64,000 nt of DNA. Origin: Schmidtea polychroa. Its lineage: Eukaryota. Position 1 is the first letter of the stretch, and each line of letters opens with the position of its first letter. Where the stretch lies: NCBI GenBank assembly GCA_044892525.1, contig CM097885.1, positions 33,358,001 to 33,422,000 of the forward strand. Reading direction: 5' to 3'. A model generated the notes under the pieces. The model saw only the letters and a list, made by a program, of their open reading frames with translations. It was not told the DNA's origin and made no database searches. Positions 2,604 to 63,180 of this stretch are shown piece after piece. The position numbers and the translations under genes were made by a program.

Positions 2604-4583
2604 TTGATAATAGCGTTTAATATTGCGGATCAAAGGATTGAATATTATCAGAAACATTGGAGTGTAAAAGCAAAGAAAATACGACAGAAAGCAGCGGAGA
2701 TATTAGGTAATGAAGGAATTATCGTGTTGACGTTCAAAGGACGAGAATTAGATGATGACGAATATTTGTTAAACTACGGATGTAACCCAAATTGTATTAA
2801 TAATGTGTACGCAACAAAACAAAGTGATGAAATGGAAAGAGATGCAGTAATAGTACCGTTTTGGCCTCCGTATGAGGAAACGGATAATGATAATGGTGAG
2901 ATTAAAACTGAAGTTGTAGATGACCCAGGAGAAATTGATCAAGAAATTAATGAATTGCAGAGATTAGAAACAATGGAAAATGAGGAAATGGGATCGGAAA
3001 ATGAAATTACAAGGGATATCGAGGAAATGAGCACCGATAATAGGGCACTACCGAGCATAGATGAGATGAAAAGTGAAGAGAACTTCGTTGAAACGAAAAA
3101 TAACATTGCGATATGTCGGAAAAAACAGAATGATGCGGAAACTGAATCTTTGAGTTTAGATGAATTAAGCGAGACTGAGCGAATATTAAAAAGTTTAGTT
3201 ACGGAATTGTACTTGTTAGATGAAACTGAAACAGAAGGAGATGATACTTCGGAGGGGGAGAAAAGAGTTGTAAAGAGATTGGCAACGGAATTAAAGAGGA
3301 GATTGCCGTCGATAATTAAAAGAAATTATGAAGAAAAGGAATTTTGTGAGGAAGCAGTAATTGAGGACCTAACACGAACCGAGTTGGATCGAGATGTAAT
3401 ATTGACAGTGCTAGCCTATATAATATTGGAGATTGGTATTTATGGTTGTCTGGAAGCTGACAATTCAAAATCATTGATAAAGAAAGCCACTGAAATGACA
3501 AATAAATATTTGATGAAGTGGATCGCAAACAATGGCGGATGGGAAAAGTTGATACAAAAGGCTGAGAGCCCAAAAACAGAGACAGTGAGGAAAAAGGGAA
3601 AACTCGCATTTCCATGGTTGATGATCTCTATTATTATGTTATTGGGAATAATAAACACGACGAATTCATTGGTGGCATACGACTGCTCCCAATTCAAAAT
3701 GGGGAGAGTATATTCGTTGGTAAACGTAGCAGAGTGTTCAGATGCATACCCAGTAAAATTTAAAGTGACAAATCCAGTAAAATATCTTGTATATCAAGAA
3801 TCGGGGTTTCGACGAGCAAAGGTGAGAGAGTGTACAGTGAAACGAACTACTTTTGTATTTTATTGTGGAAAATGGAGCCACTCATCGATGGTGAAAATGC
3901 AATCGATACCGAGACCGATAGAAATAATTCCAGAGAATTGTTTGGCAGCCTTTCAAACAGGACAGTTGAAAATCAATGCAGATATTAAACTACAAGCAAA
4001 GCTTAACCACAAAATCCGTGAGACTGTAACCGTGCGTGGGATAATAAAGTCGAATGGAGATTGCCAAGGAGAGCCATACAAAGTAGACGATGCTATAATT
4101 GACAAAGCCGTGGTTGTGGAAGAGTACATGTTAGAATTAAGAGAATTTGATGGATCATTTGATGATGATACTGGTAAACTACAAACACATCCATTCTGCA
4201 ACATGAAACAATCTAGCTGTCAGACAGGAGAATCAATCTTGGTGTATGATGTCGATACCAAAAGGTGCAATTTAGTGCAATTGAAGTCAATGAGTTTTAA
4301 AGAAATAACGGGAGAACAGATCAGGGAAAAGCCTGAGAAGATAAGAATGGATCCAGCAACGAGTACAACAACAAGAATCACACCTCTACGGATGAAAGAT
4401 ACTCCAACAGTGTTAATGTCAACCTCGACAGAAGATGGGATGCGATTCCTGAGAAAAGAAACTAAAACAAAGTGTGGACAAAATGTCTATGAGACAAATT
4501 ATAAAGGTATATATGTATCTCAGAAGGTGATTACAGAGGCCCAAACAAACATACATGCCGGAGATATTAAGTTGACAAATTAA
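2604..4583 (+). CDS. Polyprotein segment: UBL2, acidic linker, Bcl-2-like domain, TM/signal peptide, N-terminal half of class III-like envelope glycoprotein
   Basis: UBL motif LTFKGRELDDDEYLLNYG (2604-2820). BH2-like WIANNGGWEKL (3519-3551). Hydrophobic PWLMISIIMLLGII, then LVAYDC (3669) and a Cys-rich ectodomain of chuvirus/gB-like type. Confidence 0.8.
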   Translation: MIIAFNIADQRIEYYQKHWSVKAKKIRQKAAEILGNEGIIVLTFKGRELDDDEYLLNYGCNPNCINNVYATKQSDEMERDAVIVPFWPPYEETDNDNGEIKTEVVDDPGEIDQEINELQRLETMENEEMGSENEITRDIEEMSTDNRALPSIDEMKSEENFVETKNNIAICRKKQNDAETESLSLDELSETERILKSLVTELYLLDETETEGDDTSEGEKRVVKRLATELKRRLPSIIKRNYEEKEFCEEAVIEDLTRTELDRDVILTVLAYIILEIGIYGCLEADNSKSLIKKATEMTNKYLMKWIANNGGWEKLIQKAESPKTETVRKKGKLAFPWLMISIIMLLGIINTTNSLVAYDCSQFKMGRVYSLVNVAECSDAYPVKFKVTNPVKYLVYQESGFRRAKVRECTVKRTTFVFYCGKWSHSSMVKMQSIPRPIEIIPENCLAAFQTGQLKINADIKLQAKLNHKIRETVTVRGIIKSNGDCQGEPYKVDDAIIDKAVVVEEYMLELREFDGSFDDDTGKLQTHPFCNMKQSSCQTGESILVYDVDTKRCNLVQLKSMSFKEITGEQIREKPEKIRMDPATSTTTRITPLRMKDTPTVLMSTSTEDGMRFLRKETKTKCGQNVYETNYKGIYVSQKVITEAQTNIHAGDIKLTN

Positions 4584-4637
4584 TTTAATAACAAAATAGA
4601 TTATTTATTTCACTTTGGTCAAAATACCGTTGAAAAT

Positions 4638-6503
4638 GTGTACCGAGAAGTTATTATAAATGATTGCAATCTCAACAAAGAAATACTCCGAAATCGGATG
4701 GCAATGGCTATAACCAATCCTAATTTAGTAGCACCAATGTTAATTACAGAAAATGGGGTGTTTGCCAGAATTTTCGGTGAAGCACTATATAGCTATAAAT
4801 GTAAAGCGGTACCAGTCGAACTGACAAAGTACGACCAATGCACCAACGAGTTGCCAGTAAATTTAAATGGAAAGTTGCGATTTATGGAGCCTGTAACACG
4901 AATCTTACTGGAAGAGGACGTGAAACCGAAAGTATTACAGTGCAATAGATTGTTGGCACCACTATACAGACTAACACCAGAATCTTGGATTGCATTACCA
5001 GATCATCGAGAAGTAAAGACACCGGAAAATTTAGAATTGACAGAATTACAATATCTGGTAAATTTTACGTCGTTAGAAAAATTGTCGCAAAGTGGAATTT
5101 ATTCGAGCGAAGACATTAAGGAAGCTCGCAGAAACTTGTTATTTCCATCAAAGAAAGAAAGAGTAATAATGGAAATGGTAGATACAATTCTCCCAAGCGG
5201 AAGTGGGAAGGTAAATTACGAGTATTTATTAACTCCAGATCATTACAAAAAAGCGACGTATAATACAATGAAAAGGATCTGGGGAAACTTTATGTTCATT
5301 GGACAAGCGTGTGCCGGATTGATTAGAATTTATGTAATATGTGTTGTAATTAAAGTAATAATATCGCAGGTCCTATCAACACACAGGTTATACGCGATCA
5401 CAGGTTGGTCGTGGAAACTAGTAATTGGTTGCATACCATTATTGGCTAGATTCTTCATTACTCATCATCAATATCAGGAGTTGGAGATACTCAAGGCGCG
5501 AATATTAAAGAAGAAAAAGGTGAGCTACGCTAGTACAACCCCTTCAAGGGACGAGAATAATGACAATGACAACGAGGGTGATAGTGCACCGTTATATGTT
5601 GACAATCAAGAACTAAGTGGAATGAATAAAGAAGCGTTAAGAACCTATCAAATCTTAAAAGAGCCACTGTTGAATGCGAGTAGCGTAGACACGTTTACAA
5701 AATTGCGTATAACAAAATCGTTTATGCAATCAGCACCAGTTTATCCAGTTGATCGATTACGAGAAATGAAGCCAGTCGAAAATATCGCATTACAATGCGA
5801 AAGAATGGCAGGAGAGAGAGTCGAGAGAAAAAATATGCTAGGCTTACCATGCAATTACTCATTGATGACATTAACAAAAAGAGGAAAACAACCCCGAATA
5901 TTTATACAAATGAACAAACATAAAGTGGAAGCTTTGGTTGATTCGGGATCTAGTCACACAATAATATCGGAAAATGTATTAAACGCGAAGGAAAGAATGC
6001 GAATAAAGCCTACCGACGAAATAGTAAGGTCATTATCAAAAAACGAATTAAACATAATTGGACAACTTAACGTCGTATTTCATATTGGAGATCGAATAAT
6101 AGCGCACGATGCACTCATAATGAAGGGAAGTCCAGTACGATATCTGATCGGCATGGATATATTAGAGCAGCTGGACGGAATCTCACTTGATTTAAAGACA
6201 GGTAATTTGATAGCAGGAGAAACAGGAGAAATAATTCACAGGGCAGGTGAAGTGTTTGTGAATCAGACATTGACAATACCACCACAATCGGAGATGGTAT
6301 ATTGTGCAAATACCACGAGTGTGGATAATGGTGATTTTATATTCGAACCAAATCAAACACTAGTCGAAAAATATGATCTACCGATATGTGACGAAATTGT
6401 CAAAGTGGAATCAATATGGACTAAAGCCGGTTTGACAATAAAGCAAAACCAAGAGAAATATAAAGAAGCCTACGATAAAAATGCACATGCGCATGGCATA
6501 TAA
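4638..6503 (+). CDS. Polyprotein segment: envelope C-terminal half, TM helices, retropepsin protease, then post-integrase-like tail
   Basis: GEALYSYKCKAVPV..CTNELPV..FMEPVTRIL..SGIYS motifs typical of chuvirus-like glycoproteins. Hydrophobic segment ~5280-5460. ALVDSGSSHTII (DSG at 5940) and LIGMDIL mark an aspartic protease. Confidence 0.82.
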   Translation: MYREVIINDCNLNKEILRNRMAMAITNPNLVAPMLITENGVFARIFGEALYSYKCKAVPVELTKYDQCTNELPVNLNGKLRFMEPVTRILLEEDVKPKVLQCNRLLAPLYRLTPESWIALPDHREVKTPENLELTELQYLVNFTSLEKLSQSGIYSSEDIKEARRNLLFPSKKERVIMEMVDTILPSGSGKVNYEYLLTPDHYKKATYNTMKRIWGNFMFIGQACAGLIRIYVICVVIKVIISQVLSTHRLYAITGWSWKLVIGCIPLLARFFITHHQYQELEILKARILKKKKVSYASTTPSRDENNDNDNEGDSAPLYVDNQELSGMNKEALRTYQILKEPLLNASSVDTFTKLRITKSFMQSAPVYPVDRLREMKPVENIALQCERMAGERVERKNMLGLPCNYSLMTLTKRGKQPRIFIQMNKHKVEALVDSGSSHTIISENVLNAKERMRIKPTDEIVRSLSKNELNIIGQLNVVFHIGDRIIAHDALIMKGSPVRYLIGMDILEQLDGISLDLKTGNLIAGETGEIIHRAGEVFVNQTLTIPPQSEMVYCANTTSVDNGDFIFEPNQTLVEKYDLPICDEIVKVESIWTKAGLTIKQNQEKYKEAYDKNAHAHGI

Positions 6504-6519
6504 TAATAAATTTATGTCG

Positions 6520-7180
6520 GATTTGAAGAATTTTAAAACCAAGTTGGATTTAACTAATTAAATCATAATTTAAGTCTTGCTGCGAAGTATATATTTAATA
6601 AAATGAAAGAATTTTTAACTATAATAATTGCTGTTTATAATTCATATTTTCCTTTGTACATCGATTGGCTTTCTTATTGTTTTTCGTCTTTATGACATAT
6701 ACTTTCTGTGTGAAGTTTTTCTTTGCGAGACAATTTTTTTATAGAATCCATATGTTGGAGTATCTACTTCTATTTTAATTTTTAAGTCCAGTAGATTGAG
6801 GGATCCATCTTTTTCCGAAAATTCGATTTCAAACGTAATATCTCAGTGAGTAGCATTAAATATATGATATATTTATTCCGCTTCCTTTCTGATCTTGACC
6901 GTGATAAAATATCATCTACATATCTTGCGTAGAAACCGACGGATTGTATGGTTCTCGGTGTTTGTTGTTCGAGGTTGTTCGTTTGTTGTTCGGAATATTT
7001 TGTAACGAAGCTTTTAGGTAATCTGTTCTTGAAGCCCATTTCTATAAGCCTTTCCATACTTTGTTGATCTTCATTTCTTATGATATTTGGTGACAAGCGG
7101 CTAATTTTCTTGTATGTACCGATGTCGCTGAGGTGATCGTAAGCAACTTCACAGTATCGGTTTTTCTCTATTAAGCAAAA
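6520..7180 (-). mobile_element. Penelope-like element RT fragment (deleted), truncating the LTR element
   Basis: Minus strand: FCLIEKNRYCEVAYDHLSDIGTYKK, FYARYVDDILS, ITFEIEFSEKDGSLNLLDLKI. Confidence 0.75.
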
Positions 7181-7428
<248 letters not shown>

Positions 7429-8919
7429 GTTTTTAATTTAGTAAATGCATTTATACTTTTAAAATTTACTATTTCGTTATAATGTAAAAAATCGTACCGA
7501 AATCACAAATAATGTTATGTATAAATAAAAGAAAAATAAAATATCATAAAATTATCTTTTAGAAATGCATTTGGCGGATGGATAATGACTACAAAAAACT
7601 GTTTTCACCATTAAAATAATACAATGGTCATTAATTGGTTATTGTTGTTGCAGTTTATGAAATATTATAACTAATTAACTCTATATATATATTGCATACC
7701 CTTAGTGAAGAAATAATACTCCTTTCATTATAGTGGTGGGTTACAGATAACCGGACTATACCGCTCAGTGTTGTTTCCAGCGTAACCCAGAATGTTTCTT
7801 TACCAATCGATACCCGTTGAGTAATAACTTAATAACTCCGGCTCCTCATTTTTATTTTAGTGTATTCTTTTCCGTAGTTGATCCGTTAAGGACCTGAGAA
7901 CATACTTTTCCCGTCTAACATTAATATAACTAAAATCTTTATTTCCATCACCCAGCAAATTTTCTATTGAGCGCTATCCAATATAATTTGTCATCACTCC
8001 ACTTATCACCACACTACTATTTGATGCAACATTTCAACACTAATTCATTGTTTCCCTAACCCATCATTTCCTCTCCAACTATGCCTCATATTAATTCGTC
8101 AGTTCACCCAATCATACCTTATTACCTTTTCTCATCTAAACTCTATCTATCATTAACGGCCTAAATTGTTTGGTAAGTCACTTAGCTCCTTTCTATTACT
8201 AGAACTTGGCGGTCACATCTACGATTGTGTTTCGGTTGGTAATGTATATGAGATTATATTGATTAAATGTCTCTTGCTTGAGTCATTTCCGATAAGTTTA
8301 TCAGAAGATTTTGACCAAAAACGTTTAATTAAACATAGCGAGATAAAATGAAGCATATTTACTTATTCTTATTCTCCGAATCTTACACATCAAACTTGTT
8401 ATGCGTACGATAAGATGTTCTCAACTTTTCCTATCTCAGATCTGGTGGATGTACGATCGAAAGAAGTTAGATGAGAACCTTCACAAATCTTTTAACGATT
8501 ACTTTTTGAGCCCCCAATAGAAGAAAATTTGACGGAGATTCACAAATGTTTTATATATTACCCTCTTCAATTACATGATAAACTTCCAGGAATCCCTGTA
8601 TTACAGATTTTACAAATAGGTGAGTGATTAGGTGGAGATATGATTTTTTTCAGAAGAGAATTAAAATGTTTTTGTCTTTCAACGAATAGATATCATTATC
8701 ATAGTCATAATAGGGAATCATTCACCAAATCATTGATTGCTTGCCTTTAACTTGTTAGCCTTCCTATGATATTTCCCGTCACCTTACTCGACTCTTTGGT
8801 CGAAGTTATGAGATAATTTGGTAGAACACTGTATGATAGTGCTTGAAATAAAATAATTCTCCAAAGAAGGGTGGATTAATTATTACTAGTTCATTTTTCG
8901 ATAATGGGCATCGACTACT

Positions 8920-10315
8920 TCCAACCATGTCTACTCACGACGGCTTGTCTCATTTGAGCAACAATACTTTTGGGGATCTCTTGATTTTTCAAATCTTTAC
9001 GGGTCCATCCCTCTCACTGGAGAGAACAACGTTTTAACAGTTACAGCTTCTTTCTTCGAAACCTTCAAACCAGAAACTGTTTTTGCAGACTTATCTGAAC
9101 AAGATTTCATAGAAATTGTCAAACTAGCCATAAACTCAGATACTGTATTAATTAAAGGAAAACCGTTCAAACAAATTCATGGTCTAGCTATGGGTAACAA
9201 TCTTTCGCCGATTTTAGCCATTTTCTACATGCATCATGTAGAATCAAATATTAGATCATTTTTTGGTGATAAAATCCTGATGCGGAAAAGATACATTGAT
9301 GACATTTTCATAGTCTCCACGGTTCCTCTCAATATAATCTTGGCACATGCAAACTCCACTAACACTAATATACAATTCACTCTTGAACTACCTGATCCAG
9401 AAGGCAAGATTGCTTTTTAGATACCATAATAAGTACTTCTGATGGTCCAAACACGCTCACATTCAAGACAGATTTATTCACTAAAAAGTCTACACAGTGG
9501 GCACATTCTTCCTTGGGAAAGTCATGTTCCACTCCAACGAAAAATCGCTCTATTAGTAGGAGAGAGAAAAAGAGCAATACGGAACTATTCGGACAAAACG
9601 AGAAAACAAGAAACCCTGGAAAACTTTAAAACATGGCTTTTACAAAATGGATATTCAAAGGAGTTCGTAGAAAAATAATTCTTGAGTGAATATATCTCTA
9701 ATAGGCATAATACACAAAAGGAACATGTCAATAAGCCAGTAACATACCTACACTTCCCTTTTTTAAACAATAGGACATGTAATACAATCAGAGCTTACAT
9801 TCGCAATATGAAGTTGGCAGTTCATATTCGCCCAATTTTTATAACTGCTGCACCTTTGAAATCACAGCTTTGTAAGTCTCAAAAATCTCTAACATCAGAC
9901 CTATTTCATCGAGATTGTATATGCCAATCCTCCACCAAATGTTTCTGCTTCTCAAAGAACATCGTTTACCAAATTACTTGCACAAGATGTGACGAATCTT
10001 ACATAAGAGAAACACTTAGAACGTTCCTAACAAGACTCAACGAACACTTCAAGAGCAATACCAGCAATTATCACGAACACTGAGGAAAAAAGTGCACAAA
10101 TCAGAACCACTCTTACACGAAACAAAATGCAAAATGTTACAAGATGCGTTCAAAATTCATTGCAAAGATTAGCCGCGGAGACTCTTTATATCAAAAAATT
10201 TAAACCGTCCATCAACATTCAACTAAATTAATACTTAAATTAATATTTAATTAAATTTAAAATTTAAAATTAAAAAAATATTTAAAAAATATAAAAAACG
10301 TTTTTTTATAAAATG
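8920..10315 (+). mobile_element. Penelope-like retroelement, 5'-truncated RT + GIY-YIG endonuclease, frameshifted
   Basis: SLDFSNLYGSIPL, GLAMGNNLSPILA, KRYIDDIF, IQFTLELP, LLQNGYSKEFV, and GIY-YIG NIVYQITCTRCDESYIRETLRTFLTRLNEH. Confidence 0.9.
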
Positions 10316-11580: not shown

Positions 11581-12572
11581 TGTTTTGAGGTTGTTAAAGT
11601 AAATTATTAAATTATATCAAATTGAATAGTTCCGAATAAAAAGAAAACAAAAATTGAACGAAAAAGAATGGCGGTCAAGCAGAGAAGTAATGGCAAAGAA
11701 AGATATGATAAAAACAGAACTATAAAAGCGTACAATCAGGCACGAAATGGAAAAATGCGCAAACCTGAGGAAGTGGAATAAAGTGAAATCTTATCGAAAT
11801 TGAAGCTGGAAAATAGGAGAGGGGTAGATTAGGGAATGGTTAAGAAGACAGTGAGCAAGAAATTATTAGAAAAGGTTTGGAAAGGGTCGAAGAACAGGCA
11901 AATATGGTAAAACACAAACTATTAATTAATTAATTAATTGGCTAATGGAAAACCCGAGCTAATGGGAAATCCGAGCCAATGGAGAACCCGAGCGATGACG
12001 AAAACACGAGCGCAGCAATTTGGGAGAATAAACAAGCTGGAAATTTAGAGGGCAATTATCCAAACAGTCGGATAAACGAGGGTAAACAATAGAAGGGGAA
12101 TTACTAAAAGGGTCAACAGAAATAACTAATTAGAGAACGATAACTAAGGAAGTAAAAACCAATTAGGTCAAAAACAGAGCAATTAAAACGATTATTGGAG
12201 TATATAAGGAAACTCCAAATTCAGATAATCGGCTAGTTTCTCGGGTAGGGAAAAAGAAACTGACAATAGGAGTTTGAGGAACAAAGCTAAGAACTGAAAG
12301 GCAATTATAAGAGGAACTGAAGAGTTCGAAAAAGAAATATTAAAGGAGTTCGGATCATAGAGTGGAATCAAATAAAACGGTGAAACCTATTTCGAGATTG
12401 TCCAGGGCGAAGTTTGATCAGAAATTGTGGTTAACTAAAAGTTGTAATTATTAATTGAGAATTGTAAATTTGCTATAAAACAAATATACGTTGGGAGTTG
12501 TGTTTACCAATTTAGGGACACGTGGAATCAGAGTAACCAACAATCGACTTTTTATTATCATAAAACCCAACA
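11581..12572 (+). mobile_element. Solo LTR of a family related to the 389-1448 LTR (left boundary approximate)
   Basis: Shares the (TAAT)n-GGCTAAT..AACCCGAG..CCAATGGAGAACCCGAG block, GAGTATATAAGGAAA, AATATACGTTGGG and the ACCCAACA end. No PBS follows and no TSD was found. Confidence 0.7.
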
Positions 12573-24690: not shown

Positions 24691-27600
24691 CAGGGGCGCT
24701 CCAAGCGGGCGTGCAACGCGTGCGTGGCATGCAGGCGGCCATTTGAAAGGCGGCAAATTAAAAAAATGCATTTGCAAAAACAACAATTTCATTTTGTAAA
24801 ATTCATTTTTTCATTTTGTAAAATAAAAAAAAAGTTTCGACTATTTTGTTACTGAACGCACACAGTTTGTGTAGTATCATTGAACGCACTCCATTAATTT
24901 TTATATATCTTGGCTTGTCATTGACAAATACTATTACACTAAATAACTTTGACAAGTTGTCAAAGTCATTTAGTGTTTTAATTTTGGATTCAAAACAACA
25001 TTAATATTTCCAGTTTTTAAATTTATAAAAATCAATAAGATTTTTATTTAAAAAAAAATAGAGATATATAATATTAGATTAGAAAGCAGGATTGTATTAT
25101 AGAATTTGGTAAGTATAATTCAACTTTTTCTATATTTTTGTTAAACATAAGTATTATCATGTACGTTAGATATTTATTATTTGTATTATTTGCACCATTA
25201 GATATGACCGGAAGAAAAACAAAACGTTTATCTGGCGCACAATACAAAAAGCAGCGTTTAAATAAACTGAAATCAATGCAGAGTTTGAAGAATTCGCTTT
25301 CAAAATATTTTAAAATACACCAACAGCGTCGTCAAGCACACCTATAGAAATAGAAAATAATGTTACCATATCTGTTGACGATAATAAAAGTTCTAGTGAT
25401 AGCGATGAGAATGAATATGAAATTTTTACAGAAATTCGGTCTGAAAATTCATCTGTTGGAAATTCATCTGACGAAAATTGTGAAGCAAATATAATATTGG
25501 ACGATCCAGGTATGTGGGCAAATAATATATCAAGTATTACCGCACGTAACCTTGTCGAAAGAGGACCGATTCAAATAAAAATTTTCGAATTTCCATTGTC
25601 AAGTGGGCGTAAATTTTCAAAAAAGTATTATTTAAGACAATTGCCGAACGGAGAAGAAACACAACGCGAATGGCTTGTGTATTCAATTACTAAAAATTCT
25701 GTGTATTGTTTTTGCTGTAGGATATTTGATTTCAGTGATAAAAGCAGTCTATCCGATTCATCTGGTTTTTCTGATTGGCAACATTTATCGTTAACTTTGT
25801 CTCGACATGAAAAAAGTCAGTTTCATAATGAAAATATAAAAAAATGGATATTGTTAAATAAATCATTAAAAAATAATACTACAGTTGATAGTGCGAACCA
25901 AAGACTATTACAAGCCAAACGAAAGTATTGGTATGAAGTAATTCAACGAATAATATCTATTATTCAATATCTTTCTAGGCAATGCCTTGCCATAAGAGGA
26001 AAGTCAAATCAATTATATGCAAATAACAATGGAAACTTTTTGAAAGCAGTAGAAATGGTTGCCAGATTTGACCCTATTTTGCAAGAGCATGTACAACGGA
26101 TTGAAAAGTCTCGAAACAATTTGAAATATATGCCTCATTATTTGGGGGATAAAATACAAAACGAAATTATCAATATTATTAGCACAAGTATTAAAAACGC
26201 TATATTAGATTTAATTAGAAAAGCAAAATATTTTTCAATTATATTAGATTGCACACCAGATGTTAGTCATACTGAGCAATTAACTATTGTAATAAGAATT
26301 GTGAATTTGGAATCAAAAAAAATTGAAATACGTGAACATTTTTTGGGTTTCTATCAAATAACAAATACTACCGGCGAGGGGTTAACCGAATTTGTTTCAA
26401 AAGAACTTTCAAATCTAAATTTAAATATTCATAATATGCGTGGACAGGGATATGACAATGGTGCCAATATGCGAGGAAAGCATAATGGCTTACAAAAAAA
26501 GAATTTTAAATATCAACCCGCGAGCATTTTTTGTACCATGTTCTGCTCATAGCTTAAATTTAGTTGTTAATGATGCGGCACATATTTCACATGAAACAAT
26601 AACATTTTTTGATTTAGTACAAGAAATATATGTAGTTTTTTCGGCGTCAACTAAAAGATGGGCGATAATAGTAAAATATTCACCGAATTTAAAATTAAAA
26701 CCCCCGAGCGATACAAGGTGGTCAAGTAGAATTGATGCCATACAACCACTAAGGTATCATACTGAACAAATTTATAAATCTCTTCTTGAAATATCAAATG
26801 ATCAATTGATTGACTTTAAAACCAGACATGTGGCAAATTCTCTTTCACTAAAAATATCAAGTTATCGTTATTTATGTTCCATTGTTATTTGGCATGAAAT
26901 TTTGATGAAAATTAATGTTGTTAGTCAAATATTACAGAACCCAAACACCGATATCAATAGAAGCGTTACCGCGTTAGATGATTTAATAGAGTTTTTTTAA
27001 AAATTGTCGTAATGATAATGGATTTGAAAAAATGCTTACATCAGCTAGTGAATTAGCCGAAAAATTACACGTAGAACCTAAATTTCCAGAAGTTTCAAGT
27101 TTAAGAATAAGAAGAAAAACAACAAATTTTGATTATAAAGGCAAGGATGAACCAATATTAGATCCAAAAACAAATTTTAAAATTAACTTTTATTTCTGCA
27201 TTATCGACCAAGCATTAGTATCAATTACAACAAGATTCGAAGCGTTAAAATCGTATAATGATATATTTGGATTTATGTATAATATTAAAGATATAACAGA
27301 AGAAATACTTTTGAAAAGCTTCAAAGATTTACATTTGAAATTAACTGACGAACAAAGAAATGAGTCCGATATTAATGGAATTGATTTATTCGAAGAGATA
27401 AAAACTATAAAGGTATTTTTAAAAGAAAAAGATATTAAACCTCAATCTATATTATTATATATTTTACAAAATGATCTTCAGGCAACATTCCCAAATATAT
27501 TCATTGTGACCAGAATTCTATTAACATTACCAATCTCAGTTGCAACAGGTGAAAGATCGTTTTCAAAATTGAAGATAATTAAAAATTATTTACGATCAAC

Positions 27601-27996
27601 TATGCTCCAGGAACGTTTAAGTAATATATCAATAATTTCAATAGAACATGAAATCCTAGATAATTTAGATATGCATGACTTAATTTCACAATTTACTTTG
27701 AACAAGGCAAGAAAAGTCTCTTTTGTATGAGTAGTAAACTATTAATTTCATAAACTTTCTATTGTTTGTGTGTACTAAACTATAACTTTCCTAAACTTAT
27801 CTGTTTTGTGATAAATAAACTATAATTTTCATAAACTATTGCATGTGATATGTGTGTTCTACCGTAGTTAGTTTAATTTTTACTTTAATTAAATGTTATT
27901 TTTATTTTGGATTATAGAAACTTTTTTGCAGCAAGGATGAAGAGCGGCGGGAAATTATTTTGCACCCAAGGGGCCTAACAGCTCGGCGCGCCCCTG
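24691..27996 (+). mobile_element. Full-length hAT DNA transposon (ZMYM1-like transposase), inactivated by frameshifts
   Basis: TIRs CAGGGGCGCTCC / CGGCGCGCCCCTG. 8-bp TSD TTGTAATA/TTTTAATA. Transposase ORFs inside. Confidence 0.93.
25204..27730 (+). pseudogene. hAT transposase (TTF-type Zn finger, DUF4371-like core, hATC dimerisation domain) with frameshifts near 25315, 26500 and 26995
   Basis: MTGRKTKRLSGAQYKK, WLVYS..VYCFCC, IILDCTPDVSHTEQ, GQGYDNGANMRG, CSAHSLNL, TRWSSR, LPISVATGERSFSKLKIIKNYLRSTM. Confidence 0.92.
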
Positions 27997-48374: not shown

Positions 48375-49378
48375 AGACGCGTGCCGAGAAAATAAAATAA
48401 AACCAATACATAAGATAATATGTTTTCTGTAAATAAATTTCAGAACTATACATAATAAACAAATATTTTTGTGTTATGTTAATATATTAATATCTTTATT
48501 AAAAAAAGTATAAAATGAAAATATAGTTGAAATGAAATAAAAAAATCCATATTTTTATTTATTTAGTTATATAAATAAATAAAGAATAATTAAAGAATGA
48601 AATTATTTTTGCAAAACAAACTTAAATTAATGACATTTCTGTTATTGTACAGTGGATGATAAATATTTTATATCTGGCTCATAATTCGTAGCTTTTAATA
48701 AGATACAAGAAGTACTACTATCGTCTGTTAGTTTATTTCTCATGTCTGATTTAATAAAATTCATTGAAGGAAACGTTTCACAAGAATAAGTAGATGAAAA
48801 AATTGTTAAAATAGGCATTGTTATTTTTTTAAGGCATGAAAAATTATCGTGAATAGATTTCCAAGTTGTAAGAATTTCATTTTCACCATTTCTCTGGACT
48901 GCTCCAAATAATCTATCTCGTTCAATTTCTTCCAAAATGATTCTTAAATCAATGAATTTTTGTTTCCATATCGAACTAGATTGAAAATCCACCAATTGCA
49001 TCTCGAAATCTTCTAAATTCATAAATTCGAATATCATTAAATTTAACTGTTCGTATGTATAAATATCTGGACGGGTAATAAATTTTGAAGTTTATTCAAA
49101 TTATCGAAATTGTATATATCTTGCCGAAAATTGTTCAATTCTAGCTTCTAAAATATTGTTGATTTATTTTATTATTTTTGTTACTTCGGGGTTTTCATGA
49201 ATTTCTAAGTTCATCATATATTTTTTGAAATTTGGGAAATACTTAAAATTTCTGCTCATTACGTTTTGTAAAAAAGTAAAGCTTTTTTTACAAAAATAAT
49301 TCAAAATTTTTATTTTAAACTTATAAAAACTTCGGGTGTCATCAAATTCTCTCACGTACCATAAGTTGGCCATCACTG
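48375..49378 (-). mobile_element. Internally deleted hAT (GTF2IRD2/SPIN-like) transposon
   Basis: TIR CAGTGATGGCCAACTTATGG on the minus strand at 49378. ORF 48642-49037 has the hATC motif IFSSTYSCE..MNFIKSDMRNKLTD. Confidence 0.8.
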
Positions 49379-54982: not shown

Positions 54983-55887
54983 TCATACAATCCCGAGTAT
55001 AAGCTGCAGCTAATACGTACATTAAGGCAACATTTCTGAATTGCAGCTAATATGATGTGCAGCTTATACAACTAAAAAACAATTCAAATCGAAGATAAGA
55101 TTATTTATTTCAATTTTCAACATCACACTCCTCAAAACCATCACACTTTTCATTGTCAATAAAAGTGAAACTTGGCACCTTTAGTCTCAATTGTGTACCC
55201 TAAAGGCATGTCACATTGAATGGACACTTCATCAAAATTACCGATTTGATTATCGGGCAAATCCTTCTTTAAATATGCGATGGTGCTTCTAAACTTGGCC
55301 ATCTGAATTTTCCCAATCTTTCGGTAATTGTTGCTTCGTGGTAGGCCGTCGAACACAAATATTCTTACAACCGACACTTGAAGTTCTCGTTCACGTTGAA
55401 TTAGGATCCATTCGTGTAATTTCGTTTCCAATTCCGGATATCTAGCGTTACCACCACGAAAACATCTTCGATTTGGATTCATTGCTTTGATAACAGACTC
55501 TTGGGCGATCCATCGTCGAATAGCAGTTTCATTAATATCATATCGTCTTGCAACCTCCCGTATGTTTCCTAACTGACGAGCTAATTCAATAACTTCTTTT
55601 TTCTTTTCTGAACTAAAATATCTTCGTTGTTTCTTTTGTTTTTGTTCAGAATCGTTATCCATTTTAATCAAGGATTCAAAACAGTGCAATAAACAATGTA
55701 AACAATGTAAACGATTAAAACGGTGAAATTTGTTTTTTAATGATAGGTTGCTGATATTAAAATCATGTGTTTTCAACGCAAATGGTGCAGCTAATACGTG
55801 CTGCGGTTTATACGACTAAAAATACATTTTTATAAAAATGTCATCTGCAGCTAATACGCGCTGCCGCTTATACTCGGGATTTTACAG
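54983..55887 (-). mobile_element. Internally deleted pogo-family transposon
   Basis: TIRs AATCCCGAGTATAAGC at both ends. ORF 55156-55776 has an HTH (KKKEVIELA..VARRYDINETAIRRW), a CENP-B-like HTH (YPELETKLHEWI) and the DDE start IGNFDE. Confidence 0.85.
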
Positions 55888-61828: not shown

Positions 61829-62230
61829 CACTATAGTGAGAGGGTCTCGATGGTCCTGGGATTTTCAATACAAAAAAATTTTTTTCAATACAAAAACGAT
61901 GGTCCTGGGATTTTCAATACAAAAATCTGACTACCACTAAAAAAGCCAAGGATTTATCAGACTATAGTGAGGTGGGTCTCGATGGTCCTGGTATTTTCAA
62001 TACAAATAAAATTTTTTCAATACAAAAATCCGACTACCACTAAAAAAGCATGGAATTTTCACACTATAGCGAGGGGGTCTCGATGGTCCTGGGATTTTCA
62101 ATACAAATAAAATTTTTTCAATACAAAAATCCGACTACCACTAAAAAAGCCAAGGATTTATCAGACTATAGTGAGGGGGTCTCGATGGTCCTGAGAACTT
62201 CAATACAAAAAGGTGGTCTACACTAAAAAA
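61829..62230. repeat. Tandem repeat, ~100-bp unit, about 4 copies
   Basis: ACTATAGTGAG..GGTCTCGATGGTCCTGG.ATTTTCAATACAAA..GACTACCACTAAAAAAGC recurring. Confidence 0.9.
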
Positions 62231-62239
62231 ACGTGGTAA

Positions 62240-63180
62240 ATTTTTTCAATTAAAGTAAATAATGGTTCTAAAAAATTAAATTACAGTAAATAATGGTCCA
62301 AATTTTTCAATTAAAGTAAATAATGGTTCTAAAAAATTAAATAACAGTAAATTATGGTCAAAATTTTTCAATTACAGTAAATTATGGTCCTAAAAATTGA
62401 ATTACAGTAAATTATGGTTCTATAAATCGAATTAAAGTAAATTATGGGTCTAAAAATTGAATTAAAGTAAATTATAGTCTAAAATTTAAAATTAAAGTAA
62501 ATTATGGTCTAAAATTTCAATTAAGTAAATTAAGGTCTAAAATTTTCAATTAAATTAAATTAAGTCTAAAATTTTCAATTAAGTAAATTATGGTATATAT
62601 TTTTAAACTTAAGTAAATTAAAGATAAATAAGCAAATTAAGGTCTAAAATTTCGATTAAGTAAATTAAGGTCTAAAATTTTCAATTAAAGTAAATTAAGG
62701 TCCAAATTTTGAATTAAAGTTAATTAAGGGTCAAAATTTAAAATTAAAGTAAATTAAGGTTCTAAAAAATTAAATTAAAGTTAATTAAGGTCCAAATTTT
62801 TAAATTACGTAATCAATGGTCAAATATTTTAAATAAGTAAATTAAATTAATAATTTTTAAATAAGTAATGTAATAAGCAAATTAAAGTAAGATTTTAAAT
62901 TTATTAACAAAATAATAGAAGGTGTTTGAGAATTGAAATTTTTAAATGAAAATTTTTATGAAATAATTTTTCAATGAAAATTTTAAATGAAAACTTTTAT
63001 GAAATATTTTTCAATGACAATTTTAGAAAAAAAAATTTTTGAAATAATTTTAGATGGAAATTATGTAAATTAAGGGATACAATTTTAAATTAAAGTAATC
63101 AATGGTCTATATTTTAAACTTCTATATTCGGTAAACAAGGACTAAATTAAGTAAATAAAGGGTTAAATTAAAGAAAATTA
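62240..63180. repeat. Degenerate ~30-bp tandem repeat
   Basis: AATTAAAGTAAATTATGGTCTAAAATTT-like units. Confidence 0.85.

Follow-up and report, generated by a model that had tools for sequence, protein, structure and literature searches.

Flatworm long terminal repeat (LTR) elements that carry an envelope (env) gene of the HSV/gB type (HSV, herpes simplex virus), in the order GAG-ENV-POL, have been described, with six families in Schmidtea (Chary & Hayashi, eLife 2026, PMC13524379); the available text of that study states that the entry mechanism of these gB-type errantiviruses is unknown. An earlier survey, in its section on Burro elements, reported ubiquitin-like, BCL2, and env regions in frame between gag and pol (Arkhipova & Yushenova 2019, PMC6431247). 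The Burro env matched mononegavirus glycoproteins and the elements were proposed to be proviruses (PMC6431247, same section). Here, we analyzed a stretch of 64,000 nucleotides from Schmidtea polychroa (assembly GCA_044892525.1, contig CM097885.1, positions 33,358,001 to 33,422,000; hereafter the window), which harbors a dead copy of a high-copy planarian Ty3/gypsy family, Smed_errantivirus_2; this copy is truncated and contains two internal deletions. That a flatworm LTR element carries a gB-like env is already in print, as is the family itself. Our analysis adds the LTRs, the target duplications, the tRNA-Trp primer site, and the single open reading frame (ORF) of the intact copies. It further reveals purifying selection on env at the level of the integrase, which constitutes population evidence that the spread of the family needs env, and a conserved second membrane protein, which offers a concrete candidate for the attachment partner that has been missing.

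The window copy and its glycoprotein

A sequence-only reading of the window had proposed a chuvirus- or gB-like glycoprotein, interrupted by a stop codon, within an LTR element. The motifs on which it relied (LVAYDC, FYCGKWSH, CLAAFQTG, GDCQG, GEALYSYKC, CTNELPV, FMEPVTRIL, and SGIYS) share one frame from position 3669. The cysteine-rich ectodomain, which had been estimated at ~540 aa, spans ~537 aa (3669-5279; all features of the element are on the forward strand) and contains 14 cysteines, and the suspected in-frame stop is a TAA at 4581-4583 that splits the domain. The hydrophobic segments expected after the ectodomain were found as a predicted membrane anchor and a next hydrophobic segment (5289-5460; based on hydrophobicity and the structure model), with a Kyte-Doolittle value of 2.64 in the intact copy. 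The ectodomain contains a single N-glycosylation sequon and lacks furin-type sites.

We searched for the family of this protein by reading env with an X at the stop. It matched the Pfam profile PF24664 (Monjiviricetes fusion glycoprotein) with E = 2.8e-87 and 293.6 bits, relative to a cut-off of 27. Each half of env also matched this profile on its own (E = 3e-25 and 5e-57), and profile positions 22-588 were covered across both. Because the score is far above the cut-off and each half matches alone, this match is not due to chance. A sequence search of the Protein Data Bank (PDB) returned centrin-like proteins and nothing else (E = 0.018 or worse), which we regard as noise.

The fold was predicted with AlphaFold using the env of an intact copy (L011). 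A single-sequence fold was discarded (pLDDT 33) and replaced by a model based on a 119-sequence alignment, which comprised about 113 of the 150 listed matches together with local copies, excluding most of the long polyproteins and short fragments. The resulting model (pLDDT 89.1; pTM 0.69) presents a long central helix at residues 302-349. All the rows listed by Foldseek against the PDB were herpesvirus gB, the best one being HSV-1 gB (E = 1.6e-14). With VIA-align, 400 residues were aligned to herpes gB (Z = 11.2; rmsd 7.0) and a thogotovirus glycoprotein was found at rank 50. In a library of viral folds, the best matches were the glycoproteins of chu-like viruses (E = 5.6e-45). The best structural matches were viral rather than non-viral proteins and the predicted fold is of class III, such that both the chuvirus-type homology and the gB-like fold of the sequence-only reading were recovered. 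We consider the class III (gB-like) assignment to be solid for a modeled structure.

In the window copy, env is not a separate gene: it lies in frame between Gag and the protease. Its frame extends forward into an aspartic protease (5904-6170; Pfam gag-asp_proteas, E = 4.4e-8) and back through a predicted internal signal peptide (3600-3668) to weak Bcl-2 and ubiquitin matches. The signal peptide corresponds to a hydrophobic segment found in the family (A) and in its sister families (B and C), and its cleavage is inferred. The Bcl-2-like domain (3174-3569) contains a BH2-type W..GGW motif (Pfam Bcl-2 E = 0.074, below the cut-off) and is preceded by two weak ubiquitin-like domains (2136-2816), located at ~2136-2306 and 2595-2816, the bounds of the second being set by eye. 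The expected LTR context was confirmed by a 5' LTR of ~1.06 kb with TG...CA ends (389-1448; 91% identity to each LTR of an intact copy) and by a primer-binding site (1456-1474) with complementarity to the host's tRNA-Trp(CCA) over its 3' end plus CCA, as judged from its match to the tRNA-Trp gene.

Comparison with an intact copy defined the lesions of the element. The start of gag (1833-1989) is followed by an in-frame deletion of ~418 codons that removed most of the capsid and all the zinc knuckles. A second in-frame deletion of ~858 codons removed the reverse transcriptase (RT), the RNase H, and most of the integrase, leaving a remnant of the integrase C-terminus (6411-6500). The element breaks off near 6500 and no 3' LTR was found in the window. 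Besides the env stop, two stops are located upstream of env (2013-2015 and 2517-2519). The env stop, at env codon 305, is present in the window copy alone among 46 aligned copies. The window copy shares ~96% identity with every one of the remaining 45, and its env presents 11 non-synonymous and 8 synonymous private changes in addition to this stop. No RNA record was listed as carrying the window stretch. This copy could only have been moved, or partially expressed, with the help of intact copies.

Intact copies, selection, and accessory parts

Using the N-terminal half of env as a query, we identified 2,454 candidates in the genome (781 Mb), and all 130 candidates that were scored presented 95-100% identity. 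Nine copies were picked for their long frames and 20 kb were fetched for each. All nine contain a single ORF of 3,334-3,361 codons. Both LTRs were seen in seven of them, with six pairs being 99.5-99.9% identical and one 96.4%. Intact copies are 16.4-17.8 kb long and present LTRs of 1,027-1,058 nt (7/7) and target duplications of 4 bp (6/7). They display the hallmarks of Ty3/gypsy elements: TG...CA LTRs, a tRNA primer site, a polypurine tract, and a target duplication. The primer tRNA originates from a tandem tRNA-Trp(CCA) array with a 284-bp unit (from G000:C4:55020937); the tRNA-Trp pattern has 821 genomic matches, and 99 of the 100 matches listed sit in the tandem array.

The 3,319-aa protein consists, in order, of Gag, three CCHC motifs, weak ubiquitin-like and Bcl-2-like parts, Env, protease (PR), RT, RNase H (RH), and integrase (IN). 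A Pfam scan recovered the PR-RT-RH-IN order of Pol with an H2C2 integrase. By the Pfam domain types of Pol, the family is classified as Ty3/gypsy, and its placement within Metaviridae follows PMC13524379. Hydrophobic segments are found before Env, after Env, after the integrase, and near the C-terminus, with another one inside the Bcl-2-like domain. The 5.4-kb 3' region of the intact element contains no frame longer than 114 codons. Sister families B and C present the same layout, with frames of 3,419 and 3,437 codons. A near-identical internal deletion (reference 5933 to 8821-8823) was observed in 3 of the 36 copies of a second sample (L046, L053, and L054). It takes out RT, RNase H, and most of IN, whereas Gag, Env, and the last membrane protein remain, and these copies possibly represent a non-autonomous subfamily.

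We then estimated selection from the 46 aligned copies. Variants common to at least three copies were taken as changes inherited through replication. The counts exclude codons in which more than one position differed, as well as columns with fewer than 20 copies. Shared variants of the env ectodomain comprised 49 synonymous and 10 non-synonymous changes (omega = 0.08), relative to 66 synonymous and 104 non-synonymous private variants, including five stops (P = 3e-9; Fisher test against shared variants). For shared variants, omega was 0.08 in the integrase, 0 in RT, 0.09 in Gag, 0.28 in the Bcl-2-like part, and 0.5 in the acidic linker, and the ectodomain encoded after the integrase presented moderate constraint (omega = 0.26; P = 0.01). 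The half of env that was not used to pick the copies yielded an omega of 0.06-0.10, and excluding CpG sites left 47 synonymous and 8 non-synonymous changes in env. Env is free of any stop or frameshifting deletion in 42 of the 46 copies (insertions uncounted). Between families A, B, and C, env is 69-70% identical and all 14 cysteines are kept, relative to 53-58% identity for the protease and 27-30% for the acidic linker. These results show that, among replicating lineages, purifying selection acts on env as strongly as on the integrase.

Transcription was assessed in two raw single-cell RNA runs of a related organism label, which contained 5,383 and 4,665 reads of the family out of ~12.9 million each. 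These reads fall in all 30 bins, most of which show a strong one-strand bias, and no joints were listed. The family is transcribed across env in the RNA of this organism label; these data do not address the window copy. Run X3 contains contig joints that we did not take for splicing, as they have neither GT..AG ends nor raw-read support. Poly-A loose ends in the LTR may represent internal priming and were not used to define transcript ends.

Several other parts of the polyprotein present weaker resemblances. Pfam ubiquitin yielded E = 0.071 in the window copy and E = 0.002-0.03 in the intact copy, all below the cut-off. A profile of six Bcl-2-like sequences matched Bcl-xL (E = 3.4e-4), with the match mostly confined to the BH2 region; its GGW is invariant in the six sequences, and an NWGR-type BH1 motif was not seen by eye. 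After the integrase, the intact copies contain ~400 residues without Pfam match (L012:213-1343; absent from the window). These residues, which share the frame of Pol, consist of a predicted signal peptide, an ectodomain, and a membrane anchor. This membrane protein was found in all three local families with 35-37% identity. Its C-termini (ETRL, ETWV, and ETFV) follow the pattern E-T-x-(L/V), a class I PDZ-binding-type motif, and the tail in family A contains PPSY. Language-model features associated it with fn3 clusters (0.94 with 176 shared features for family C; 0.83-0.87 for family A), and fn3 was not matched in Pfam or PDB sequence and profile searches. No relatives of near or longer lengths were found in a set of 5.8 billion proteins. 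Three distant relatives of the env lineage present a signal-like segment and more sequence after the integrase, which shares no detectable sequence similarity with this protein (phmmer). An L.P...Y resemblance noticed by eye in P0009 and P0014 was set aside, as the alignment was poor (16-17%). Modeling Env jointly with the post-integrase ectodomain, conducted without alignments, scored 0.00 and was uninformative. The protein is not mentioned in the section on Burro of PMC6431247 or in the main text of PMC13524379, and literature searches turned up nothing on it or on an FN3 protein in such elements; Grohme 2018, Lee 2026, and Repbase may cover accessory parts. It may be new, that is, undescribed so far.

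Proposed use of the glycoprotein

We interpret the window element as a dead copy of a family that probably uses a gB-like fusion protein, encoded between Gag and Pol, to form enveloped particles that enter other cells; cell-to-cell infection by the family, which the sequence-only reading had also suggested, is likely and has indirect support from the purifying selection on env. The mechanism that we propose draws on the anatomy of the element and on general knowledge of polyprotein viruses. Full-length RNA would be translated into one polyprotein, which would be threaded through the membrane of the endoplasmic reticulum (ER) with four crossings, in the fashion of flaviviruses and pestiviruses. 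Gag and the ubiquitin-like and Bcl-2-like parts would remain on the cytosolic side. The internal signal peptide would direct the ectodomain of Env into the lumen for release by signal peptidase, and the Env anchor would bring the chain back to the cytosol for PR-RT-RH-IN, with the element's protease releasing Pol. A second signal peptide would export the FN3-like ectodomain, which would be held by the final anchor and freed by signal peptidase. On budding particles, Env would form trimers and mediate fusion with a recipient cell, giving access to stem or germ cells, and integration in these cells would generate the 4-bp duplications.

Several points weigh against this interpretation. Hydrophobicity is the sole basis for the predicted topology and cleavage, and the family is known here from sequences and models, with no particle, trimer, or fusion event observed. 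The TM-scores of the env model to gB are just ~0.4. Because env shares its frame with pol, some of the constraint on env could be exerted in cis. Private variants present an omega of ~0.6 rather than 1, which indicates that the sample is biased toward well-preserved copies; copies were taken from the top of the search, nine of them for their long frames. Shared variants were tallied per site and not per branch, and sites are not independent branches. Finally, the RNA belongs to a different organism label and stems from other copies, which are mostly 90-99% alike, and splicing is poorly visible in single-cell libraries.

The in-frame position of env is central to one alternative, in which env acts in cis as a spacer that must fold and cross the ER for Pol to be released, while the element replicates within the cell. 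Because env precedes Pol in frame, stops or misfolding would directly cost Pol, and infection data for gB-type elements are nonexistent in the available text of PMC13524379. A clean deletion of env would lift this cost, yet the full gB-like architecture has been kept at an omega of 0.08, env is 69-70% identical between families when the acidic linker is 27-30% identical, and an env embedded in a polyprotein persists in distant relatives at 29-44% identity. We consider this spacer role rather unlikely. Alternatively, Env might be a working fusogen at the cell surface or internal membranes, mediating cell-cell fusion or interference with related elements, and not a component of free particles. 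A single ORF would yield Gag, Env, and Pol in equal amounts, which is not the case in retroviruses, the Bcl-2-like and FN3-like parts suggest host manipulation, and a stem-cell benefit has been attributed to the related Burro1 (as cited in the available part of PMC13465017). But Gag is likewise constrained (omega = 0.09), and selection on the branches leading to new insertions indicates a benefit to the element's own replication, which makes a fusogen acting outside of particles unlikely as well. An origin of the window glycoprotein as a chuvirus gene that was domesticated by the host or captured recently is highly improbable: the chu-like virus glycoproteins are its best viral-fold matches and solo glycoproteins of chuvirus type are described in mosquitoes (available part of PMC7642597), but the window env contains a private stop and 11 private non-synonymous vs. 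8 synonymous changes, it is embedded in an LTR element of which many near-identical copies exist, a branch of their own separates polyprotein-type envs from free-standing glycoproteins (SH 100), and the broken frame and LTR context refute this origin for the window copy.

It is possible that these families are two-glycoprotein retroelements, in which a single open frame encodes a gB-like fusogen ahead of Pol and, behind the integrase, an FN3-type surface protein. The latter would be the partner, for attachment or triggering, that fusogens of the gB type usually require. We put this pairing forward tentatively. If true, it would explain the cell choice and entry of gB-only errantiviruses, in a tractable stem-cell animal. 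Young, transcribed, high-copy families, together with RNAi and grafting in a laboratory animal, make both the need for env and the attachment partner testable.

Surrounding sequences and related systems

The window contains several other remnants of mobile elements. A fragment of another RT-bearing element lies directly upstream on the reverse strand (2-328; RVT_1 E = 9e-17). Penelope-like fragments are located at 6785-7192 (reverse strand) and 8905-10083 (forward strand), the forward-strand pieces matching RT (E = 1e-6) and GIY-YIG (E = 0.007), and one of these fragments may have truncated the LTR element. A short diverged piece of the same LTR family (79%) is found at 11777-12011. Decayed DNA-transposase-like frames, hAT-like by eye, are located at 25314-27727 (forward), 48645-49091 (reverse), and 55159-55815 (reverse), and arrays of ~100-bp and 29-31-bp repeats at 61840-63120.

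Searching env against 1.84 billion representatives with HMMER yielded 1,485 matches. Among the 14 long top matches that we scanned, 11 present a protease behind Env and 5 of these also RT. We built a FastTree phylogeny of 126 rows; midpoint rooting makes its root arbitrary and we claim no donor. The 17 polyprotein-type rows form one side of a branch with a support of 100; 13 of them present a linked protease, two an upstream Bcl-2-like part, and two are fragments assigned by similarity. We also observed at least two aspartic-protease domains or motifs behind Env in the distant relatives P0009, P0010, P0012, P0013, and P0020. Another member, P0014 (HBK71150.1), is a Gag-Env-Pol polyprotein of the env lineage that was deposited as a protein of a Flavobacteriaceae metagenome-assembled genome; it is likely a mis-binned animal contig.

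Herpesvirus gB and the G proteins of Jingchuvirales and Mononegavirales share fold and family membership with env, with an identity of 10-12% to gB and up to ~23% to viral G. Unlike these proteins, env would here be made from an internal signal peptide inside a retroelement polyprotein. Anakin, a mosquito BEL/Pao element, is likewise an LTR element with a chuvirus-type glycoprotein (available part of PMC7642597). Unlike Anakin, the intact ORF of our family matched only Ty3/gypsy-type Pfam families over Pol, and Pao-type families were not among its matches. Troyka was dropped as a home for the element, as it presents CG termini and 3-bp duplications (available part of PMC12440569).

Burro1/GYPSM1 presents a similar organization, namely one polyprotein with Gag (3 CCHC), ubiquitin-like, BCL2, Env, and PR-RT-RH-IN (PMC6431247, section on Burro). 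A Burro1-like giant of the same genome is 33% identical to the family over Bcl-2/Env and 43% over Pol. It measures ~34 kb with 4.3-kb LTRs, relative to 16-18 kb with 1.06-kb LTRs for the family, and the MATH, BIR, and ankyrin cargo of Burro1 has no Pfam match in the intact ORF of the family. Burro1 was rejected as the home of the family because size and cargo fail. The primer site and the post-integrase ectodomain also differ from those of the giant, with no significant blastp match for the latter. The Burro env was related to gypsy Env in the same section of PMC6431247; we found a class III fold, in agreement with the available text of PMC13524379. This giant (L083-L088) contains LTRs that are 99.98% identical, a frame of 4,672 codons, a separate BIR ORF of 392 aa, and an ORF of 341 aa with a predicted membrane anchor.

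The closest described elements are the errantiviruses of PMC13524379, of which, in the available text, Smed_errantivirus_1 resembles sister family B. The main text of that study makes no mention of Bcl, ubiquitin, fibronectin, polyprotein, accessory, or in-frame. Its supplement lists no LTR and a tRNA type of 'none' for Smed_errantivirus_2, whereas we found a 1.06-kb LTR and a tRNA-Trp site. The available entry for Platyhelminthes_Rhabditophora_Smed_errantivirus_2 is otherwise alike in its HSV/gB-type env, its GAG-ENV-POL order, and its high copy number (215 intact copies listed), and 246 of 251 residues of env domain I-II are identical to the window, as counted by eye over that stretch only. 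On these comparisons, nothing separates the family of the window from Smed_errantivirus_2, and the window copy is a dead derivative of it.

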